From: Bdellovibrionota bacterium
Lineage (GTDB): Bacteria; Bdellovibrionota_C; UBA2361; OMIW01
Direction of reading: 5' to 3'
Assembly (NCBI GenBank): GCA_044345055.1
Contig: JBIJBT010000001.1
Span: forward strand, 1,956-65,955
DNA length: 64,000 nt
Made by a program: the position numbers and the translations under genes. Shown here in pieces: positions 18,342 to 30,688 of the stretch. Each line of letters opens with the position of its first letter. The first letter of the stretch is position 1. The notes below the pieces were generated by a model. That model had not been told where the DNA came from. It worked only from the letters and a program-made list of their open reading frames with translations, and did not search any database.

Positions 18342-19568
18342 ATGATTAGTGTCGTTGCGAATCCGGTAATCGTTCTTTTTACGATCGGCGTTATCATCTT
18401 TATCCATGAGCTTGGCCATTTTTTATTGGCACGGTTCAATAAGGTGGACGTAATTGAATTTGCAATTGGCTTTGGTCCCCGTTTGTTCTCATGGACACAT
18501 GGCGGAACCATATACGCAATTCGGGCGATTCCTTTTGGGGGATTTGTTCGGATGAGTGGAGACGATCGGCTTCTTATGTCGGAGATAGCCGCGATAAAGT
18601 CTGGTGGAAAGCAGGAGCCAGCTGATAAGGCAACCGAAGAAAAGGCCGCGTTAAACGCTGATAATCAATCAATGGAGGGGCGTGATGAAGAGATTCGTGC
18701 GCTACTGGAACGCCCCGATGGATGGTTTCTCTCGAAGGGGTACTTCGCGAAAAGCGCAATCGTCATCGCAGGACCGCTATTTAATGTGGTGTTTGCCATA
18801 CTTTTGGCGATCGGATCTTTGGTAATCTACGGTGAAGCGGTGATGGAGGAGGGGCCGGTTATTGGGGATGTTCAGGCTGGACATCCAGCCGATAAAGCAG
18901 GAATCCGTCCAGGGGACCGTATAATTTCAATTAATGAAGCACCGATGTCGAGCTGGCAAGAGCTTGCATCGACTATTCGTGGCAGCGGTGGAAAAGAGCT
19001 AGAGTTTGTGATTGAACGAAAGGGAAAAGAGCTCGAGGAACCATCCTCAACTTTGACTGTTCGCGTTCAACCGTTACCTGATTCGGCTGAGCTTGAGGTT
19101 GTCACGGGAGCCGCTGCGAAGGGTCATGTTATCGGGATTATTCCCTCATTTACTTACAAGCCGATGGCGTTCGGTGATAGTGTTTTGGCTTCATGTGATC
19201 AGGTGTGGCGTTTGAGCGTTATGACTGCCCGCAGCTTTTGGGGACTCGTCTCTGGGAAATTATCGCGCAAACATGTGGGTGGGCCTATTCAAATGTTTCA
19301 GGAGGCATCACGCTCAGCGAAGCGGGGTGGAGGCTCTCTTCTCGGTTTTATGATATTCATCAACGTAACACTCGCTGTACTCAATCTTCTTCCGATTCCG
19401 ATACTCGATGGAGGCCATCTCCTCTTTTTCACCTATGAGGCGATTAAGGGTTCGACGATCTCGGTGGTTGCTTATCAGCGAATGACTGCGGTCGGGATGA
19501 TACTGATTATGAGCCTCATGCTGTTGGCTTTGACAAATGACATCGGAAGAGTTCTTGGATTCTATTAA
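18342..19568 (+). CDS. rseP: RIP metalloprotease RseP (site-2 protease, M50) with PDZ domain
   Basis: Intact HELGH in TM1 (IFIHELGHFLLAR). PDZ segment GDVQAGHPADKAGIRPGDRIISIN. C-terminal LNLLPIPILDGGHLL. Confidence 0.85.
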   Translation: MISVVANPVIVLFTIGVIIFIHELGHFLLARFNKVDVIEFAIGFGPRLFSWTHGGTIYAIRAIPFGGFVRMSGDDRLLMSEIAAIKSGGKQEPADKATEEKAALNADNQSMEGRDEEIRALLERPDGWFLSKGYFAKSAIVIAGPLFNVVFAILLAIGSLVIYGEAVMEEGPVIGDVQAGHPADKAGIRPGDRIISINEAPMSSWQELASTIRGSGGKELEFVIERKGKELEEPSSTLTVRVQPLPDSAELEVVTGAAAKGHVIGIIPSFTYKPMAFGDSVLASCDQVWRLSVMTARSFWGLVSGKLSRKHVGGPIQMFQEASRSAKRGGGSLLGFMIFINVTLAVLNLLPIPILDGGHLLFFTYEAIKGSTISVVAYQRMTAVGMILIMSLMLLALTNDIGRVLGFY

Positions 19569-20722: not shown

Positions 20723-21157
20723 TCACTCGATTCGAACTAACGCATCACCAAGGGAGAGCTCTTGGCCGACCGCTACGAATACCTCCTTAATTATACCAGA
20801 TTTCGGCGCAGGAACTGTATTTTCCATCTTCATCGCCTCAATTACCGCCAAAGGAGCTCCAACCTCGACGTTTTGGCCGACAGTAACCAGAATAGCAGCG
20901 ACTAAACCGGGGAGGGGAGTCAAAATACGGTCTGGAGAAAAGGGTTGTTGAACAGAGCGCTGAGGAGCGGGAGCAGGTGCGACAGTTGATGTTGCTGCAG
21001 TTGATAGAACCTTTGCGCCCTCGTGAGGAAGCTCAGGATTAACCTCAACGGTATAACGCTCACCGCTGACCTCAAAGGTAATGCGCGGACCCGTTCGTTC
21101 AAGGAGAGTCGCTCGAACGGTTTTTTTACCAAGTTTAATAGAGTAGCTATGTTTCAC
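20723..21157 (-). CDS. Biotin carboxyl carrier subunit (biotin/lipoyl attachment domain, 1.3S/MmdC-like)
   Basis: Biotinylation motif EAMKMEN inside VGAPLAVIEAMKMENTVPAPKSGIIKEVFV. N-terminal SIKLGKKTVRATLLERTGPRITFEVSGERYTVEV resembles the small carrier subunits of transcarboxylase / Na-pumping decarboxylases. Confidence 0.8.
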   Translation of the reverse strand: MKHSYSIKLGKKTVRATLLERTGPRITFEVSGERYTVEVNPELPHEGAKVLSTAATSTVAPAPAPQRSVQQPFSPDRILTPLPGLVAAILVTVGQNVEVGAPLAVIEAMKMENTVPAPKSGIIKEVFVAVGQELSLGDALVRIE

Positions 21158-21506
21158 CGAGACCTCCGAGCTGTTTTTTCTTGCCTCTTAAAATCGGCCC
21201 CGCAGAGCGGCGATGGCTGATGCGTTTGCCCAACCAGAGCGATTATCCCTCTTCGATTCATCGAGAGAATCGGAGGTCGTTAATGCAAGAGTAACACCGA
21301 TAAGCGCAATTTCATCTATAGAGAGTGTTGAGTCATTGCATTCTATCATCACCGATGGAATATCATCGTCGCTGAACGAGACAGAATGTGGAACTGCTCG
21401 AGTGAAGAGGGGTTCCGTCTTCGGGGTGATTGGTGATTCCATGCAACCTCGTCGTGGTTCTAAGTCTTTGCAGAAAAAATATAAAGCGCTGGCTTTAGAA
21501 ATCTCT

Positions 21507-23048
21507 TCACAACGGAATATTTCCATGACGCTTTGGCGGATTACTAAGCCTCTTTCCACGAGTCATTGAAAAACCCTCTATTACGCGCTGTCGAGTATTT
21601 TCGGGAAGTATTACTGCATCGATAAATCCGAGTGCTGCGACCTGCCACGGATTTGCAAATTCACGCCGATATGAGGCAGCGAGCTCATCTCTCTTTTTTG
21701 TAAATTCGGCAGGATCGTTCATCTCATCAAGCTCTCGCTTGTGAAGGATATTTACCGCTCCTTCTGGGCCCATCACTGCGACCTCTGCGGTTGGGTAGGC
21801 GAGATTAATATCACCCCGAAGATGCTTTGAACTCATCACATCGTACGCACCCCCGTAAGCCTTTCTGGTGATGACGGTCACCTTTGGAACGGTTGCCTCT
21901 GCGTAGGCGTACAAAAGTTTTGCGCCGTGGCGGATAATTCCGCGATGCTCCTGATCAACTCCGGGCAAGAAGCCGGGAACATCAACAAGAGTCAAAAGCG
22001 GTATACCAAATGCATCACAAAAGCGGACAAAACGGGCAGCTTTTACACTCGCATCACAATCAAGACAGCCAGCAAGAACGGATGGCTGATTTGCTACTAC
22101 TCCAACTGGCCAGCCATCGAGCCGAATAAATCCAGTAATAATATTTTGCGCAAAGAGAGGTTGAGTCTCAAAAAAATAGTTATCATCCGCGATCTCTTTG
22201 ATGATGCCCTTCATGTCGTACGGTTTGTGAGGATTCTCAGGAATAATTGATGCTAGGAGCTGAGATTCCCTATCAACGAGATCGCCCGTTGGTTTGCGGA
22301 TTACACCATCGGTGTTGTTTTGGGGGATAAAGGAGAGAAGCTCCCGAGTGTAGGCGATAATATCTTCATCACTAGGTGCTGAAAGATGGGCTATACCGCT
22401 GATTGCGCTGTGAGGATAAGCACCGCCGAGATGCTCCTTTGTTACCTCCTCCTTGGTTACCGCTTTGATAACTTCGGGACCGGTGATAAACATGTAGCTG
22501 TGGCTTTCAATCATCAACACAAAGTCGGTGATAGCCGGTGAATACACAGCTCCTCCCGCGCATGGGCCCATTATAAGCGAGAGCTGTGGTACAACTCCGG
22601 ATGCGAGGGTGTTTCTCAGGAAGATATCTGCGTACCCTGCTAGGCTCTCAACTCCCTCCTGAATGCGGGCTCCTCCCGAATCGTTAAGGCCGATAATTGG
22701 GCATCCCGTTTGAACGGCAAGATCCATGACCTTGCAGATTTTTTTGGCGTGCATCGTCGCGAGCGACCCACCGAAAACTGTAAAATCCTGTGCAAAAAGG
22801 AATACCTGTCTTCCGTCAATTAATCCACGACCTGTAATTACACCATCACCAAAAAATGATTCCCCTCCATGCGATGATTGGTTCGAAGCGAGCTGATCGA
22901 ATTCGACAAATGAGCCTGGATCGACGAGCAGTAAAATTCGCTCACGCGCGGTAAGCTTTCCCGCGGAGTGTTGTTTTGCCACCCGCTCAACACCACCACC
23001 CTCGAGCGCGCGTTGCGTTTTTTCGAGTAACTCTTCTCGGAGCGTCAT
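21507..23048 (-). CDS. Acyl-CoA carboxyltransferase (propionyl-CoA carboxylase beta / methylmalonyl-CoA decarboxylase alpha family)
   Basis: 513 aa, two crotonase-like CT halves. LTARERILLLVDPGSFVEF at the N-terminus. GGAY...RKAYGGAYDVMSSKHLRGDINLAYPTAEVAVMG at the C-terminus. Confidence 0.85.
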   Translation of the reverse strand: MTLREELLEKTQRALEGGGVERVAKQHSAGKLTARERILLLVDPGSFVEFDQLASNQSSHGGESFFGDGVITGRGLIDGRQVFLFAQDFTVFGGSLATMHAKKICKVMDLAVQTGCPIIGLNDSGGARIQEGVESLAGYADIFLRNTLASGVVPQLSLIMGPCAGGAVYSPAITDFVLMIESHSYMFITGPEVIKAVTKEEVTKEHLGGAYPHSAISGIAHLSAPSDEDIIAYTRELLSFIPQNNTDGVIRKPTGDLVDRESQLLASIIPENPHKPYDMKGIIKEIADDNYFFETQPLFAQNIITGFIRLDGWPVGVVANQPSVLAGCLDCDASVKAARFVRFCDAFGIPLLTLVDVPGFLPGVDQEHRGIIRHGAKLLYAYAEATVPKVTVITRKAYGGAYDVMSSKHLRGDINLAYPTAEVAVMGPEGAVNILHKRELDEMNDPAEFTKKRDELAASYRREFANPWQVAALGFIDAVILPENTRQRVIEGFSMTRGKRLSNPPKRHGNIPL

Positions 23049-23106: not shown

Positions 23107-23673
23107 CTAAAAAGATTCCATATCCTTTGGCGGTTTCGGAGCTGGAAGCTCGGGAGGTGCCTGTTCTTCGAGCGTTACGATCTTCTTTGCAAGTCTGTCG
23201 AGCGCAGAATCAAAGAGTAGCGGATCGAGCTCTCGGTGCGTTTGGAGGAGATGGAGCGCCTCACGCGGTCGGCCACGCTGCTCAAACCAGTTCGCAAATG
23301 AACGCCACCGATCCGCAATAAGAGTTGCATCAACTCCCTTTTCCTGAGCCTCTGTCAGAGCTCTTTCAGCTCCCTCAATGTTGTTGCGCGCCAGTTCAAT
23401 ATCAACAATTAGCATGAGGTAAAAATGCGGATTCTCCCACGACGGCCTATCCTTTACCGCCAAACGGCGCTCGATATGTGCTCTATAGCCCGCGATCGCT
23501 TGATCGTAGTTTTTAAGACGAAGCTGCTCTTCTGCTTCACTCAGATTAAGCGATCCACGTCCGTAGCTACATCCGAACAAAATTATGGGAAGCAGTAGCG
23601 TTGTCGCGATGCTGATGACACTATTTTGTTGGTGGCTAGTTTTTATACTTTTTTGGGGTAGCATAAGAACCAT
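23107..23673 (-). CDS. Lipoprotein with TPR-like helical repeats
   Basis: Signal peptide with lipobox LFGC. NYDQAIAGYRAHIERR and LARNNIEGAERALTEA are TPR-like. Confidence 0.5.
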   Translation of the reverse strand: MVLMLPQKSIKTSHQQNSVISIATTLLLPIILFGCSYGRGSLNLSEAEEQLRLKNYDQAIAGYRAHIERRLAVKDRPSWENPHFYLMLIVDIELARNNIEGAERALTEAQEKGVDATLIADRWRSFANWFEQRGRPREALHLLQTHRELDPLLFDSALDRLAKKIVTLEEQAPPELPAPKPPKDMESF

Positions 23674-23728: not shown

Positions 23729-24598
23729 CTAATGGGAAGTAGAAGTCCGTTCAGAATCTCCTCCCTGACAAAGCCACGCAAGATACTCTTCCGAAGACAT
23801 CGCTTTTGACTCGTTCGGGGAACGCCATCGTTTGTGAATCCATACCCATTGCTCTGGATACTGCCGAACGAGCTCCTCGAGATGGGCGTGATACTGCTCA
23901 AGGACTCGCTGGATCGAAGTCCTATCGGTAATTTCGCGAATACTTACCCGATACGCAAGAGGACCAGTGCGAACAAGGAAGCTTGAAACAAGTGCTACAT
24001 CATTTCGGAGAGCTATTTCAACAAGGGTCGTCGGGGTCTTTGCAGGATGGCCAAAAAAAGGAACCCATGCACTGCGCACCGTCGTATCTTGATCGATGAG
24101 CGCCGCGATAACCCCGCCCTTTGAAAGGATGCGGGCGATCTCTCTACCTCCGGCGACACCGGTTCGCCACAACATTGTAACGCCCGAGTTGTCACGGAGC
24201 CGCTTGACGAGCTGTTGGAGAAAAGGGCTTTTAGTCTCGCGGCCAATCGCGTGAAGGGGCACCCCTTTGGTGCGAGTATATGCAGCGAAAAGGTCCCAGT
24301 TGCCGAGATGTCCAGTTAGCGCAACAATTCCTGAGCCAGCGGCCCGAAGCCTTTCCACTATATGCCAGTCATCACAAACAACCGATGCGTGCTTGAGGAG
24401 TGGTTGACTGAGTACAGCCTCAGCGAACGACCTTCCCAAATGATCATACATCCGTTTTATCGTTTCCGTCCGTGCGTTGGGGAGAAAACGTGCAAGCTGC
24501 CGTTGGGCAATAGCGCGTTCTTTGAGCGGTAAATAATACGCAAGGATGCCGAGCCGCCCGCCGAGCCCTATCGCGCATGAGATAATAAATTTTATCAT
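23729..24598 (-). CDS. Lipid A biosynthesis (Kdo2-lipid IVA) late acyltransferase, LpxL/HtrB family
   Basis: 289 aa. N-terminal membrane anchor then HLGNWD-type HX4D acyltransferase motif (ALTGHLGNWDLFAAY) and PFFGHPAKTPTTLVEIALR, typical of LpxL/LpxM/HtrB. Confidence 0.7.
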   Translation of the reverse strand: MIKFIISCAIGLGGRLGILAYYLPLKERAIAQRQLARFLPNARTETIKRMYDHLGRSFAEAVLSQPLLKHASVVCDDWHIVERLRAAGSGIVALTGHLGNWDLFAAYTRTKGVPLHAIGRETKSPFLQQLVKRLRDNSGVTMLWRTGVAGGREIARILSKGGVIAALIDQDTTVRSAWVPFFGHPAKTPTTLVEIALRNDVALVSSFLVRTGPLAYRVSIREITDRTSIQRVLEQYHAHLEELVRQYPEQWVWIHKRWRSPNESKAMSSEEYLAWLCQGGDSERTSTSH

Positions 24599-24685: not shown

Positions 24686-25927
24686 TTAACCATCAAACGG
24701 TGTGAGTGGGGACTCGTCATCGGGGGGTTCCTCTTTGTGGAGGGCGCCAACGATAAGCACATCGCTTAGGCTACCCGGCAGAATAATTCCCTCAAAATTG
24801 TTTTCAGAGGCAACCACAACCGCAGCACCCTCTGATGAACCCACTGCAAGGATATCTGAAACTGGGGTATCCGGATTCACCACATGTGCTGGAGGCGATG
24901 CTATTTCAGTTACGTACTGCTCCTCGTGATCTGCCCGAGCCGCCGCAGCAAGAAGAGTACGACGATCGACAAGTCCAACGACCCGGCCCTGCAGAATGAC
25001 CGGAAAAACATCCTGAAATGATGATCGAGCCGTCCGGAGAGCAGAAGTTACGGTAACTCCGTGAGTAAAAAAGTCCACTCTATTTGCCGGACGCATAACC
25101 TCTTTTGCCTGCAAACCTGAAGCTGCAAGAAGAGCGGTCTCCTCCATCGCGATGTGTATGGACGCAGCAAGGATCATTAGACACACGAGGAAAAGAGAAA
25201 AGGGTCCCCACCAAAGACAAAAAAGAGCTACGCCCATCGTGATTAGTTGCCCCGAGCGGATTAAACCAAGCGATGAGAGCGAAACTGCTCCCGGTTTTTG
25301 AGGCATCCACTGACGGAATACGCGCCCCATGTCGAGCGGCTCGAGCGGAAGGAGATTAAGAAGTCCGAGAGCAGCCTGTATTACAAAAAGGTGCATTATC
25401 GGGTCTTGCGCAAACGGAAGAGCGGGCCGGGACTTTGAACCGATGAAGAGTGTATACAGGAGTGATGCGGCGATAAGGTGCACAAAGCTGGGCATTAGAT
25501 GATACGCGACCGCTCTTACTTTTGAGGAGGATACCGGAGGAAGCACTTTCCCTCTTGAAAGCCCCATTTCACCAAACGGCATCAGAATAACTTCGCGGGA
25601 GAAATCAGGGATACCGGTTAATCTCCCCACGGCAAGGTGCAAGAGGAGATGAATAATCAGCGATGCAACAACGGCAAGTCCAAAGAGAAGGGTCTGCTGG
25701 CCCGAGAAATTCGATTCTCCCGCTATAACAAGCACTAGGAATACAACCGAGAGGTTAAGACCAATCGAGGTGCCAGCAATCGATCCAAGAGGAATGGAGG
25801 GTAACGGAATTCTCATGCGTATATCGTACCGAAATATGAGAAACGAAACAATCAGGAGGAATAGAGTTGAAGGTAGACCTCGGATAGGAATTATATGATT
25901 TTTGGGCGAATTGTTTATTAAATTCAT
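24686..25927 (-). CDS. Site-2 protease (M50) family membrane protein with C-terminal CBS-domain pair; catalytic HExxH degenerated to HLLLH (predicted non-proteolytic)
   Basis: TM helix ASLIIHLLLHLAVGRLTGIP where M50 enzymes have HELGH. Second zinc-ligand motif retained (LNLLPLEPLDMG). C-terminal CBS pair (ASPPAHVVNPDTPVSDILAV...VVVASENNFEGIILPGSLSDVLIV). Confidence 0.65.
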   Translation of the reverse strand: MNLINNSPKNHIIPIRGLPSTLFLLIVSFLIFRYDIRMRIPLPSIPLGSIAGTSIGLNLSVVFLVLVIAGESNFSGQQTLLFGLAVVASLIIHLLLHLAVGRLTGIPDFSREVILMPFGEMGLSRGKVLPPVSSSKVRAVAYHLMPSFVHLIAASLLYTLFIGSKSRPALPFAQDPIMHLFVIQAALGLLNLLPLEPLDMGRVFRQWMPQKPGAVSLSSLGLIRSGQLITMGVALFCLWWGPFSLFLVCLMILAASIHIAMEETALLAASGLQAKEVMRPANRVDFFTHGVTVTSALRTARSSFQDVFPVILQGRVVGLVDRRTLLAAAARADHEEQYVTEIASPPAHVVNPDTPVSDILAVGSSEGAAVVVASENNFEGIILPGSLSDVLIVGALHKEEPPDDESPLTPFDG

Positions 25928-26158
25928 TGAGTAAAAAACGGGTGGTGGCTGGGTCGGAATAAAGAGTTTGATCAGTCCATCTCCTGTTCCAAAAATGGCC
26001 CTTTTTAGCGGTTTTTTCTCTATTGACCCATTTATTCATACTGACTAATTAGAGGGTGGAAGCAGCTTCTCGAAAAGAATTGTTCCGCACAGTTGTAGTG
26101 GTTCTCGATGGAGCTGTATTCCGGTCGTTTAACCAACCTACATCGTACAGGAGGCATT

Positions 26159-26653
26159 ATGAGGCTTCGTGATTTGGTACCGTGGAGAGAGGAATCAAAG
26201 GGGCTGATGCGGTTAGATCCAGTTACCCGATTGCAATCAGAGATAAATCATCTATTTGAGGGTTTTATGCCGGGATTTTCGACCGATCTGCCTTCGGCAT
26301 TAACGGAGGGTCGTACTCGTTACTCTCCTCGAATCGATCTCAAAGAGAGCGATAAGGAGCTGATTGTTCGGTGTGAATTGCCCGGGATGTCAGAGAAAGA
26401 GATCGATATCTCACTTGGTGATGATTACCTCACCATCAAAGGGGAAAAACGTTATGAAGAGGAGAAGGTCGAAGGGGAGGTGACTTACCACGAAACAGCC
26501 TATGGGCGATTCGAGCGTGTTATACCCCTTGCATATGCGATTAATCAGGAGGCGATTGATTGTACTCTTCGTCACGGCGTGTTGCGGATTGTGCTCCCGA
26601 AAAAACCGGGTGCAGAAAAAGGAGTTCGCAAGGTTTCAATCCGTGCGGCATAG
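26159..26653 (+). CDS. Hsp20/alpha-crystallin family small heat-shock protein. The ATG at 26159 is preceded by AGGAGG; the ORF-track start at 26108 is probably upstream of the true start.
   Basis: Alpha-crystallin domain RIDLKESDKELIVRCELPGMSEKEIDISLGDDYLTIKGEK...FERVIPLAYAINQEAIDCTLRHGVLRIVLPK. Confidence 0.8.
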   Translation: MRLRDLVPWREESKGLMRLDPVTRLQSEINHLFEGFMPGFSTDLPSALTEGRTRYSPRIDLKESDKELIVRCELPGMSEKEIDISLGDDYLTIKGEKRYEEEKVEGEVTYHETAYGRFERVIPLAYAINQEAIDCTLRHGVLRIVLPKKPGAEKGVRKVSIRAA

Positions 26654-27657: not shown

Positions 27658-28617
27658 CTATCCTCGGCGCAGATCATCAACTATATAGAGTGGTCGTCCC
27701 TTAACTTCCTCATATATTCGTCCAATATACTCGCCGATTATGCCGAGGATAATTACCTGTAGGCCGAAGAAAAAAGAGATAAGAACGACTATGGCGGTAA
27801 AACCTTTCGGGGAAGTTCCGAGGAAAATGCGCTCTAGAATTGCATAAAATGCATACAAACTTGATGATACCGTTGCAAAAAAACCAACCACCGTTGCAGC
27901 TCGAATTGGTGTCGTTGAAAATGAAAACACTCCATCAGCTGCGAGTTTTATCAATTTATACCAAGAGTATTTGCTCTCGCCGTGTTTTCGAGCGTCGCGA
28001 GGAAGGGCGATTCCTTTTTGACGGAAACCAATCCAGGCGCGAAGCCCCCTTATAAATCGGCGGTGTTCACGATTGGCGCGAAGCTGTTCAACGACTCGCC
28101 GGGTCATTATCGAGAAATCTCCCGCATCGAGAGGGATTTCGGTATCAGAAAGAGAGCGAAGGAGCCGATAAAAGGTTGCGTAACAGAGCCGCAAAAGAGG
28201 TGATTCTTTTCGGTCCTGTCGCTGGACAAATACAACATCAAAACCGTTTTTAGCCTCTGCAAAAAGAAGTGGAATAGCCTCGGGAGGATCTTGAAGATCT
28301 CCATCAATCACTGCGATGTAGTCCCCTTCGCAATGGTCGAGTGCTGCTGTAACCGCGGCCTGATGGCCAAAGTTGCGGGAGAGAGCAAGCAAGCAGAATC
28401 GACTATCGCCCTTTATTAATTGATGGACCGATTGTTTGGTATTATCAGAGCTTCCATCATCAACGAGAATTACCTCGTGGCCTGTTCCTTCAAGCCCGTC
28501 GAGAACCGCGCGAAGGCGATTAATCAGCTCGGGCACACCAGCTTCCTCGTTAAAGAGCGGGACCGCAATCGAGAGTCGTGCACCGATCGTTTCGCTACTC
28601 ACTGTCTCGCAACTCAC
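27658..28617 (-). CDS. GT2 polyprenyl-phosphate sugar synthase (ArnC / GtrB / Ppm1-like)
   Basis: LSIAVPLFNEEAGVPELINRL...EVILVDDGSSDNT...IDGDLQDPPE (DXD). Two C-terminal TM helices, as in ArnC/GtrB. Start overlaps the stop of the upstream small ORF (ATGA). Confidence 0.8.
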   Translation of the reverse strand: MSCETVSSETIGARLSIAVPLFNEEAGVPELINRLRAVLDGLEGTGHEVILVDDGSSDNTKQSVHQLIKGDSRFCLLALSRNFGHQAAVTAALDHCEGDYIAVIDGDLQDPPEAIPLLFAEAKNGFDVVFVQRQDRKESPLLRLCYATFYRLLRSLSDTEIPLDAGDFSIMTRRVVEQLRANREHRRFIRGLRAWIGFRQKGIALPRDARKHGESKYSWYKLIKLAADGVFSFSTTPIRAATVVGFFATVSSSLYAFYAILERIFLGTSPKGFTAIVVLISFFFGLQVIILGIIGEYIGRIYEEVKGRPLYIVDDLRRG

Positions 28618-28865
28618 CGTTTCGCCTCAGCCATGAAAAATCGCCACAGTGGAAGTGGCCCGATTCCGACATCGTATCGCTGAAATAGTTGTGGATGAAT
28701 TGTTTCGTCGAGGAGCGCTCGCCACTCTTGCTCGGGGCGCGGAAACTCACCACGATCAGCTTTTGCGAGGAAATGGGCAACTTTCTGCTTTACGGCGGGA
28801 CACTGCCACAACGCATAAGGAACTGGATTTTCCAAAAGCTGCTCACGAGGGAACTTTAACGCCAT
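28614..28865 (-). CDS. Small hypothetical protein (83 aa), translationally coupled on both sides within the glycosylation operon
   Basis: ORF overlaps the upstream gene by 10 nt and the downstream gene by 4 nt. Not hydrophobic, so not a GtrA-type flippase. Confidence 0.4.
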   Translation of the reverse strand: MALKFPREQLLENPVPYALWQCPAVKQKVAHFLAKADRGEFPRPEQEWRALLDETIHPQLFQRYDVGIGPLPLWRFFMAEAKR

Positions 28866-30688
28866 AATACCACCATTTCATGCCCCGTTACGCGGTTAGG
28901 AAAACGTTCGCGGAGAATCGTGTCTAAGTATGCTGCTCCTGGATCTTCAAGAGTTGCAATCCACGTTACAACGGCCCGCACCCGATCGTCTTTAATCGGC
29001 GTTATCAGGTCGGCTTCAGCACGTCCCGGTGAACCGAGTAACTCGTATAGAATAGGAGTAATGTTTTTCTTTTCGGCAAGGAAATATATGTGAGGCTGCT
29101 CGGGAAACGCCACGACAGCACCGTTTCCTGCCCTTTTCTGTACCTCGGGAATGAGCCAATGGTATCGATCAAAATCTTCCCTTGATACTAGAATCGAAGC
29201 ACCTTTCATTGCAAGGGGAATGTGAAGGTCTCTGCCGGGTTCGCGAAGAGGCAGAAGAGGCGTTATACGCGGAAGCACCCCAAGCATCATAGCGACCGTC
29301 GCCGAGCCCCACTGGATTATTGCGATAGGACGGGTGCCCCATAAGGTATCTCTAGAAATTGCCGCTATCGTGACGAGTATCGGGATTACTGAGTACAGAA
29401 GGTAGCCAGAACCCGTGTAAGGGTATTGATTTAGATTCCAAAACGCTGCCCAGCAACAAATTGCAAAGAGGTATGCCCGTTCGTGGGGTTGTCGATTAGG
29501 TTGATTTCTGAGGTCAAGGACAATCCAGCAAGCCCGAGCTATAATCCACGGAATTATCCCGAGCATTAGAGGCCACAAGATTTTTGGATAGGTTGAGAAT
29601 TGTTCTTCCCCCCATCTTGGTTCGATGCTCACGAGTGCAATCATCACTATCCCGAGGATAATCGAGATTATCTTGATATCACGACGCGAAAATCTTCGTA
29701 TGAAAAAAATAAGTGGTAGAAAGATCAGAATAAGATCTGGTGGAGAAACAGCTGCGGTCGAAAATCTGGCCTGAGGTGATACAAAAACACCATACAACCA
29801 AAGCCGAATATCCCCATATATCCCAAAATAGAGCAAAAAAGGGACCCACACGAGTACAAAACCAAGCAGAAGGGGGAGTACTTTCTTGCACAATATCTTT
29901 ATGGAGGGTGCGCCGTGTCGGTACCACCAAAAAGCCGAAGCTCCGCATACTGAGATAACGGGGAGAAAAAATAGGTAAATAGTGCCTAGTGATAATCTGG
30001 GGGAAATGAGTAATCCGATTCCTGCAATTCCTGCAATCGCAGCTAAAGAAAGTGCCCAAAAAGAGAGCGATTGGGTTGGATTTGAAGGATCATGTCTTTC
30101 TGCTGGTTGAAATATTATTGATGTTGCAAACAATACCGAAAGCACGGCTCCATAGGTAAAAAAAAGTGCGTTTATCTTTATCTCTGTTGCTATACCCAGA
30201 AGGACGCCAGCACCAAATAATAGGAACGCTCGGTCTGTTTGTATCCACCGCACGATAAGAAAAAAAGCAGCTCCAGAGGTAAAGAGAAGATACCAAGAGG
30301 GAAGTGCGACGAAATAGTTAGGAACTGTGGCCATTAGGGAGCCTGCTGTTGCCCAGGCTGCCGAAGGTGGAGAGAGGAAGAGTAAGAATAGTCGATAGAG
30401 ACAAAACGTAAAAACGACGCACGCAGCAAAGAGCGGCCATCGAAGGTAAATTAGATCAACCCCAAAAATCCGAAAAATGGCAGCGTTACCGAGAGTGAGT
30501 AATCCTGTGTAGGGATCAACAAAATCTCGATGGGGAATCTCTCCCTGCAAAACTCGGAGGGCTGTTTGGCCGAGCATTCCATCGTCCCACGGCAACCACC
30601 CGACACCGAGAAAAAGACTAATAAAAAGAAGAGCCATACCTAATGGCAGCCAGATTGAGAGCCGTGAAAGGGTTGAAGTAGGTGTCAT
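28856..30688 (-). CDS. GT-C fold membrane glycosyltransferase, ArnT / PMT-like (GT83/GT39 type)
   Basis: 610 aa, >10 predicted TM helices. The first periplasmic loop after TM1 carries WLPWDDGMLGQTALRVLQGEIP, matching the DE/DD...(Y/H)AEI..(E/R)ML motif of ArnT/PMT enzymes. Large C-terminal soluble domain. 4-nt overlap with the upstream gene. Confidence 0.6.
   Translation of the reverse strand: MTPTSTLSRLSIWLPLGMALLFISLFLGVGWLPWDDGMLGQTALRVLQGEIPHRDFVDPYTGLLTLGNAAIFRIFGVDLIYLRWPLFAACVVFTFCLYRLFLLFLSPPSAAWATAGSLMATVPNYFVALPSWYLLFTSGAAFFLIVRWIQTDRAFLLFGAGVLLGIATEIKINALFFTYGAVLSVLFATSIIFQPAERHDPSNPTQSLSFWALSLAAIAGIAGIGLLISPRLSLGTIYLFFLPVISVCGASAFWWYRHGAPSIKILCKKVLPLLLGFVLVWVPFLLYFGIYGDIRLWLYGVFVSPQARFSTAAVSPPDLILIFLPLIFFIRRFSRRDIKIISIILGIVMIALVSIEPRWGEEQFSTYPKILWPLMLGIIPWIIARACWIVLDLRNQPNRQPHERAYLFAICCWAAFWNLNQYPYTGSGYLLYSVIPILVTIAAISRDTLWGTRPIAIIQWGSATVAMMLGVLPRITPLLPLREPGRDLHIPLAMKGASILVSREDFDRYHWLIPEVQKRAGNGAVVAFPEQPHIYFLAEKKNITPILYELLGSPGRAEADLITPIKDDRVRAVVTWIATLEDPGAAYLDTILRERFPNRVTGHEMVVLWR

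Follow-up and report, generated by a model that had tools for sequence, protein, structure and literature searches.

Site-2 proteases (S2Ps) of group III, such as M. jannaschii S2P (MjS2P; PDB 3B4R) and B. subtilis SpoIVFB (PDB 8VJL), are the closest described systems to the protein analyzed here. The importance of the glutamate in the HExxH motif of S2Ps is known from mutants. RseP E23Q has "essentially no proteolytic activity" (PMC9401612), and SpoIVFB E44Q is still captured with its substrate, the reentrant loop serving as the docking site through beta-sheet augmentation (PMC11486902). In RseP, N108 and S387 are among the residues lining a hydrophilic active-site compartment, and N394, a proposed substrate clamp, hydrogen-bonds the backbone of a bound inhibitor; SpoIVFB activity needs acidic residues after the edge strand (PMC9401612). 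One S2P homologue without the catalytic motif, EGY3 of plant chloroplasts, is conserved and functional. It lacks the zinc-binding HExxH altogether, and its described role is to stabilize other proteins, not to cleave them (PMC10978774, PMC9355673). EGY3 occurs in plants only and has been called "the only pseudoenzyme" homologous to the S2P family (PMC9355673). The iRhoms and Derlins are a looser parallel: they have lost the catalytic residues of an intramembrane protease fold, have kept client binding, and act in regulation or quality control (PMC3149277). They are an analogy only, being eukaryotic and having an unrelated fold with serine, not zinc. In the literature searched, which covers S2P classification incompletely, S2P pseudoproteases are described from plants only and none from bacteria.

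Here, I describe a gene that probably encodes a bacterial S2P "pseudoprotease". It lies in a 64,000-nucleotide stretch of DNA (the window) from a Bdellovibrionota bacterium. A sequence-only reading of the window had placed an M50 site-2-protease homologue with CBS domains and a dead active site at 24686-25927. These coordinates are exact for the ORF, which is on the minus strand and encodes 413 amino acids in the ORF list of the window, while the first ATG is probably not the start codon. Translation is likely to start at Met38 (ATG at 25816), since the more distant homologues and canonical M50/CBS proteins start at the Met38 equivalent in the alignment, the first ATG of the window is missing from a 93%-identical locus (L001) through a 26-nt indel, and the stretch between the two ATGs diverges almost neutrally (67% identity with a 2-nt indel between the window and L001; 65% at third codon positions). 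Thus, the most likely CDS of this M50/CBS site-2-protease derivative is 24686..25816 (minus strand; 376 amino acids), and residues 1-37 (25817..25927, minus strand), with their indels and near-neutral divergence, are probably an untranslated leader. The same evidence makes a start at the first ATG (25927), with an extra N-terminal TM helix, unlikely. Public gene calls include both the 413-aa and the 376-aa versions. Residue numbers below are those of the 413-aa ORF; 37 is to be subtracted for the 376-aa protein. A promoter-like TAAACA-16-TATAAT is present at 25917..25890, within the N-terminal extension, where such sites are no commoner than chance. The promoter and terminator scans gave counts not above those of shuffled sequence, so that they lend weak support to the start site and to the absence of a terminator. 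Searches for RNA elements and tRNAs found none within the window. The nearest genome-derived loci (61-62% identity) are labelled "Bdellovibrionota bacterium" (a Lake Mendota MAG) and "Proteobacteria bacterium AM_0729".

The segment SLIIHLLLHLAVG, residues 89-101 of the 413-aa ORF, carries the former HExxH motif as HLLLH at residues 93-97 (25637..25651, minus strand; codons CAT CTC CTC TTG CAC). Both zinc-ligand histidines are kept, the catalytic glutamate is replaced by Leu94 (codon 25646-25648), and the Gly of the motif is Leu or Ile in the family. The second S2P motif, NLLPLEPLD, was found at residues 191-199 (25331..25357, minus strand) and retains Asn191, Pro194, Pro197, and Asp199. Both motif assignments of the sequence-only reading were thus verified, and so was its view that two His and one Asp zinc ligand are retained: none of H93, H97, and D199 varies within the family, and all three align with the canonical ligands.

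Is this loss confined to one copy of the gene? A search of 5.8 billion proteins returned seven clusters of close homologues, at 44-89% identity, and then a wide gap. In a deeper search of 1.84 billion representatives, the family formed two 50%-identity clusters (660 and 589 bits), and the next match scored 150 bits. All eight family sequences have H[LA]L[LI]H, with H93, H97, N191, P194, P197, D199, and G201 invariant. The orthologue alignment that had been proposed as a check therefore shows this motif down to 46% identity and never HExxH. Among the nearest relatives, 120 of 150 have HExxH, and about 15% of the nearest M50/CBS relatives also have degenerate motifs.

The simplest way to discount these observations would be to regard the gene as broken, either by a sequencing error or as an allele of an ordinary M50/CBS protease that has recently lost its function, the two outcomes that had been named beforehand as refuting a pseudoprotease. 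Apart from the missing glutamate itself and a sub-threshold Pfam M50 score, nothing points that way. A sequencing error is excluded by the Leu94 codon: all the loci examined have CTC or CTT there, and three substitutions separate either codon from GAA/GAG. The same substitution recurs in eight sequences, drawn from independent assemblies and as little as 46% identical, and the exact window protein is present on 11 contigs. An artefact of one assembly is implausible, since the loci come from NCBI, ENA, JGI, and Logan and from marine and lake samples. A strain-specific loss or a decaying pseudogene is excluded as well: dN/dS is 0.066-0.123 for pairs with unsaturated synonymous sites, and the ORF is full-length and intact in all loci. 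The probability left for a broken gene is negligible. What is observed is homology to an active protease family together with a lost catalytic residue, a loss that is itself conserved under purifying selection; these are two of the features by which a pseudoprotease is recognized.

The membership of the protein in M50 is not evident from Pfam. The PF02163 (M50) model scores 13.2 bits on the window protein, below its gathering cut-off of 27.2, and the precomputed Pfam annotation of close homologues shows CBS only or nothing. Profile and fold searches were therefore needed. A profile built from the family only (A2) matched MjS2P with an E-value of 4.5e-6, and hmmsearch with A2 against the 1.84 billion representatives retrieved canonical M50/CBS proteins from E 7e-39 onward, with 2554 hits at E <= 1e-3. 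A structural model of moderate confidence, made from an 11-sequence alignment (mean pLDDT 71; below 50 at residues 1-20 and 32-40), predicts a membrane core with the motif-bearing TM helices and a membrane-reentrant beta-hairpin. The interdomain linker and CBS pair occupy residues of about 270-396 (24740..25120, minus strand). Pfam CBS recognizes one repeat (28.6 bits against a cut-off of 24), in the fold search, the C-terminal half of the model aligns with many CBS pairs of known structure over some 120-140 residues, and all the canonical CBS signature residues are kept in the family. Both the M50 fold and the C-terminal CBS pair of the sequence-only reading are thus borne out, the former although the Pfam model is sub-threshold. 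A chance resemblance to M50 was considered because of the low PF02163 score and because a single-sequence phmmer search against the PDB gave nothing useful, and it was ruled out by the profile and fold searches. Its descent and its fold place the protein in the M50 group III lineage, even though it lacks the catalytic residue and stays under the Pfam threshold. Public pipelines label the exact window protein "CBS domain-containing protein/Zn-dependent protease"; the second half of this label is probably wrong.

The window also contains a genuine rseP gene at 18342..19568 (plus strand), in a pyrH-frr-uppS-cdsA-dxr-rseP cluster that includes the usual uppS-cdsA-dxr neighbors of the gene. As had been stated in the comparison made from the sequence, its catalytic glutamate is intact (IHELGHFLLA and NLLPIPILDGG). 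RseP is of the same protease family and has the same two motifs, but it carries PDZ rather than CBS; it is a distant paralogue and not the source of the M50/CBS gene. A six-frame motif scan of the window found no M50-type second motif beyond these two genes.

How far does the change in the active site extend? Positions conserved in at least 70% of 120 HExxH relatives were compared with the eight-member family. Unchanged are H93, H97, N191, P194, P197, D199, G201, R202, R205, and Q227, as are all the CBS signature residues. Besides the change of E94 to Leu and of the HExxH Gly96 to Leu or Ile, the second Gly of PxGG is Glu or Asp at position 120, the canonical E139, the acidic residue after the edge strand, is Ala, AGPxxN is APSxVH, N184 is Gln, DGG is D[M/T/A]G, and position 196, which is Phe, Leu, Tyr, or Ile in canonical proteins, is Glu. 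The PxGG change lies in PFGEMG (residues 117-122; 25562..25579, minus strand) at the start of the membrane-reentrant beta-hairpin, the edge strand, for which the model predicts strands at residues 113-116 and 119-121. Position 120 is Gly in 115 of the 120 HExxH relatives, whereas all eight family members have Glu or Asp, that is, PFG[E/D]. His150 (25478..25480, minus strand), which replaces the Asn of AGPxxN in the alignment, is invariant in the family. Glu196 (25340-25342, minus strand) within NLLPLEPLD is equally invariant and specific, being found in 8/8 family members and in 0/150 of the nearest relatives.

The second motif follows the NxxPxxxxDG pattern, including the clamp Asn, with the first Gly of DGG replaced by Met, Thr, or Ala. 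In the model, residues 191-198 are predicted to be non-helical between helices 176-190 and 199-207, an arrangement resembling the TM3 bulge of RseP (PMC9401612). By my own sequence matching, positions 150 and 184 would be the equivalents of RseP N108 and S387, and N191 that of N394. The invariant polar residues gained in the family are Glu196, His150, His179, Gln184, and Glu/Asp120. The change in the active site is much broader than one residue, and the polar lining has been rewritten. Against the group III S2Ps, the family is set apart by the absent catalytic Glu, by PFG[E/D], APSxVH, D[M/T/A]G, and the invariant Glu inside motif 2, and by its sub-threshold PF02163 score.

The gene does not stand alone. 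Immediately downstream on the same minus strand, after a gap of 87 bp in which there is no terminator-like site, lies a gene for a 289-aa acyltransferase of PF03279 (LpxL/HtrB family; 23729..24598, minus strand; 111.1 bits against a cut-off of 22.3). The order and strand of the two genes are as first described, and the short gap and the lack of a terminator-like site suggest that they are co-transcribed. The acyltransferase has an HX4D motif at H97-D102 (HLGNWD, residues 97-102). Its designation as an LpxL-type lipid A acyltransferase holds at the Pfam-family level (PF03279 and HX4D) and goes no further, since none of the NCBIfam equivalog cut-offs for LpxL/LpxM/LpxP is reached: the best NCBIfam match is NF006487, "lysophospholipid acyltransferase family protein" (112 bits against 281), and TIGR02207 scores 74 against 297.8. 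The next gene (23107..23673, minus strand) encodes a 188-aa TPR-like protein, a predicted lipoprotein with the lipobox LFGC at residues 32-35. The order of M50/CBS gene, acyltransferase gene, and gene for a TPR-like protein of about 170-190 aa was found in all family loci with enough DNA (the window and L001-L009). At the locus of the most divergent family member (L015), an incomplete downstream gene is 41% identical to the acyltransferase. The genes upstream of the M50/CBS gene vary between family loci. Two other associations were considered and are not general: an hsp20 gene adjoins the M50/CBS gene only in the window and L001, and carboxyltransferase and biotinyl-carrier genes occur only within the HLLxH clade, 3' of the cassette.

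The cassette was also found with catalytically intact proteases. Five relatives (P0011, P0012, P0014, P0025, and P0050) have the top scores with the family profile (112-150 bits), the same gene order, and orthologous partners, and they all keep HELGH or HEFGH together with the canonical polar residues, without the carboxyltransferase and biotinyl-carrier genes. In P0012, P0025, and P0050, the M50/CBS gene is followed by the acyltransferase gene and then by the TPR gene; after P0011, on a short contig, the acyltransferase gene comes next; P0014 is accompanied by the acyltransferase and by a protein of 131 aa that is 51% identical to the TPR protein of the window. The TPR orthologues in the canonical cassettes L012, L014, and L016 are 41-51% identical to that of the window. 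The cassette is absent at the more distant relatives P0120 and P0009. Since the intact relatives share the cassette and HExxH is the norm of the family, the history that needs the fewest assumptions is an in-place loss of the glutamate from a protease that was active and already linked to the cassette. No earlier description of an S2P-acyltransferase-TPR cassette was found in the literature searched, in which S2P classification is incompletely covered.

The shared cassette allows the divergence of the three proteins to be compared. The acyltransferases of the window clade are 36-43% identical to those of L012 and L014, which are 41% identical to each other; for the TPR proteins, the values are 46-51% and 46%. 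The M50/CBS protein of the window clade, by comparison, is only 26% identical to those of L012 and L014, which share 39% identity. The excess lies in the membrane domain, which has 21-27% identity to the intact relatives versus 45-49% among the intact relatives; the linker and CBS half has 26-30% versus 30-38%, with no excess divergence. Within the clade, the CBS half is the better conserved part (74% versus 56% for the membrane domain between the window and P0006), the inverse of the situation in canonical relatives. In a neighbor-joining tree, the stem of the clade has a length of 0.144 against a median internal branch of 0.012, about twelvefold, in a tree whose placement of the clade is unreliable: the clade is drawn to the degenerate sequences P0040, P0029, P0024, and P0043, probably by long-branch attraction. 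Ancestry was therefore taken from synteny, the placement in the tree being uninformative. Such a burst on the stem, with purifying selection resumed afterwards, is the signature of a change of function, not of decay, as read from these alignments.

What may the protein do? I favor, with moderate confidence, a protein that does not cleave by the canonical route, has kept its metal ligands, groove, and CBS domains, and would act by binding in the pathway of the cassette. In this proposal, the ancestral M50/CBS protease would have been active and would have belonged to an envelope cassette of three genes, for the protease, a PF03279 acyltransferase, and a TPR protein. On the stem of one small lineage, publicly labelled Bdellovibrionota, the HExxH Glu would have become Leu and the polar lining of the active site would have been rewritten, with the His/His/Asp metal ligands, the substrate-clamp Asn, the reentrant beta-hairpin, and the cytoplasmic CBS pair kept. 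The protein is predicted still to bind metal. Its old substrate groove may still dock a TM segment or a partner, for which the membrane anchor of the neighboring acyltransferase and the substrate of the ancestral protease are candidates; the docked partner would be held or regulated rather than cut, under the control of a cytoplasmic ligand predicted to be sensed by the CBS pair. Inactivity is to be expected from the inactive HExxH Glu-to-Gln mutants of RseP and SpoIVFB (PMC9401612, PMC11486902). Canonical cleavage is unlikely because not only Glu94 but also E139 and the canonical Asn residues have been lost.

A role in binding only does not account easily for everything in the cavity. The gained invariant Glu and His seem to exceed what a passive scaffold would need, and they could supply a base or ligands. 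It is thus conceivable, if unlikely, that the metal centre has been re-wired within the membrane by recruitment of Glu196, His150, and Glu/Asp120, to give either a protease with a migrated base or a closed, CBS-coupled metal or ion sensor with four to five ligands, in both cases working within the S2P-acyltransferase-TPR module. For the protein to be still an intramembrane metalloprotease, the general base that activates the zinc-bound water would have had to move to Glu196 or Glu/Asp120. Both residues are suitably fixed in the family, as counted above, and Glu196 lies three residues before the Asp ligand, in the predicted bulge between the halves of the motif-2 helix. The three metal ligands and the clamp Asn are kept, and the cavity remains polar instead of having collapsed to a hydrophobic one. 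There is precedent among other zinc peptidases, in which the general base can lie outside HExxH, as does Glu270 of carboxypeptidase A, or in an inverted HxxEH, as in M16. However, the literature searched contains no M50 member with a moved base, and the residues at 139, 150, and 184, which are linked to catalysis or water access, were lost together with Glu94. Moreover, constraint on the membrane domain is now weaker than on the CBS half, in contrast to the canonical relatives, and a bulky Leu or Ile has taken the place of the HExxH Gly. I therefore regard a relocated base as rather improbable.

Even less probable, and only a faint prospect, is a conversion of the active site into an intramembrane metal or ion site (His93, His97, and Asp199 with Glu196, His150, and possibly Glu/Asp120) in a CBS-coupled sensor or carrier. 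Such a site would make use of the invariant His and Glu gained at positions that appear to match the active-site compartment of RseP (N108 and S387), and it would suit a protein whose CBS half is now the most conserved part and whose CBS domain resembles CNNM/CorB/CorC structures. CBS pairs occur in the CNNM/CorC and MgtE magnesium transporters. The CBS pair of this family, however, was inherited from ordinary group III S2Ps, so that its presence is not specific evidence, and the matches of the CNNM type span the CBS domain alone. No transporter-like second gate or pathway is evident, and the conserved neighbors are the acyltransferase and the TPR protein, without metal-homeostasis genes. The non-cleaving protein that binds a partner of its cassette thus remains the reading that I prefer.

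Among the known systems, EGY3 resembles the window protein in that it is conserved although the catalytic motif of its S2P fold has been lost, and it is functional. According to its description, it differs from the window protein, which is bacterial, has a CBS pair, and belongs to an envelope cassette. EGY3 is without the HExxH zinc ligands, while the window protein keeps all three metal ligands; thus, the two are likely to have arisen independently. The new elements here are the loss of the glutamate in place within a cassette, the acceleration specific to the membrane domain, and a rewritten cavity with a unique invariant Glu near the Asp ligand.

Since about 15% of the nearest M50/CBS relatives have degenerate motifs, the phenomenon of degenerate S2Ps is likely under-recognized. 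iRhoms, Derlins, and EGY3 have taught much about how membrane proteins can be recognized without being cut, and the gene in the window would be their bacterial counterpart. Since active and inactive versions share the cassette, the neighboring genes probably encode the ancestral partner or substrate. The conserved link of a CBS-type S2P with an acyltransferase of the lipid A family and a TPR protein suggests a way in which intramembrane proteolysis, or its non-catalytic remnant, could control the acylation of envelope lipids.

The protein encoded by the M50-like gene (24686-25927, minus strand), a site-2-protease (S2P) homologue with HLLLH in place of HExxH, was found in exact copy on 11 contigs in NCBI, IMG, ENA and Logan, the longest of 118,865 bases. 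It is named 'CBS domain-containing protein/Zn-dependent protease' in the databases, and different pipelines have called either a 413-residue protein (ATG at 25927) or a 376-residue one (ATG at 25816). A divergent hsp20 gene (26108-26653, plus strand) lies upstream. The non-coding stretch between the two genes (25937-26047) is 82.7% identical to that of the compared locus L001, as are 87% of the 38 nucleotides directly before the second ATG (25819-25856), whereas the identity at third codon positions of the M50-like gene is only 65%. These values suggest that a conserved regulatory region or leader precedes the gene. No Rfam family matched this upstream region; indeed, throughout the window (1-64000), no Rfam family reached the gathering threshold and no tRNA gene was found.

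The cassette, in which the M50-like gene is followed by a PF03279 acyltransferase gene and a TPR protein gene, has different company in the two groups of loci. In all loci of the HLLxH clade, the family of the window protein, the cassette is followed on the same strand by a carboxyltransferase gene, a small ORF and a biotinyl-carrier protein gene. In the window, these lie within 20723-23048 and have lengths of 513 (PF01039), 123 (no Pfam match) and 144 residues, respectively. The three may form a module for an acyl-CoA carboxylase or decarboxylase that was recruited beside the cassette. This set was not found after the cassette in the canonical loci with an intact HExxH. Three of the intact loci (L012, L014 and L017) share additional neighbors, which suggests that they come from one related lineage: QueG, together with UDP-glucose dehydrogenase and an epimerase (in L017, an epimerase-family gene instead). 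Lipoprotein_16 (PF03923) is encoded near the cassette in L012 and L017, and L017 also has a divergent CNNM/CBS gene directly upstream.

Elsewhere in the window, region 27658-30688 encodes a 319-residue GT2 glycosyltransferase adjoining a 610-residue polytopic membrane protein with no Pfam match. The equivalent region of L001 encodes several methyltransferases as well. Possibly, these genes form a cluster for modifying envelope glycans or lipids.

A second, distinct type of degenerate M50/CBS protein was also observed. P0009 (L011:6001-7110) and P0010, which are 47% identical, both have RELxR at the HExxH position; Arg replaces both zinc-ligand His residues, while Glu and Asp are retained. Related patterns (REFSR, HEFAR and HEASR) occur in P0144, P0085, P0101 and P0024. 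The P0009 gene is followed by a TP_methylase gene rather than by the acyltransferase cassette.

Among the 150 best profile-search matches, 141 full-length nearest M50/CBS relatives were counted, and 21 of them lack an intact HExxH: three have HxxxH without Glu, and in the other 18 one or both of the His residues are missing. Plant EGY3 has been described as the only pseudoenzyme of the S2P family (PMC9355673). In contrast, judging from these motif counts, catalytically degenerate S2P homologues look recurrent in prokaryotic metagenomes.
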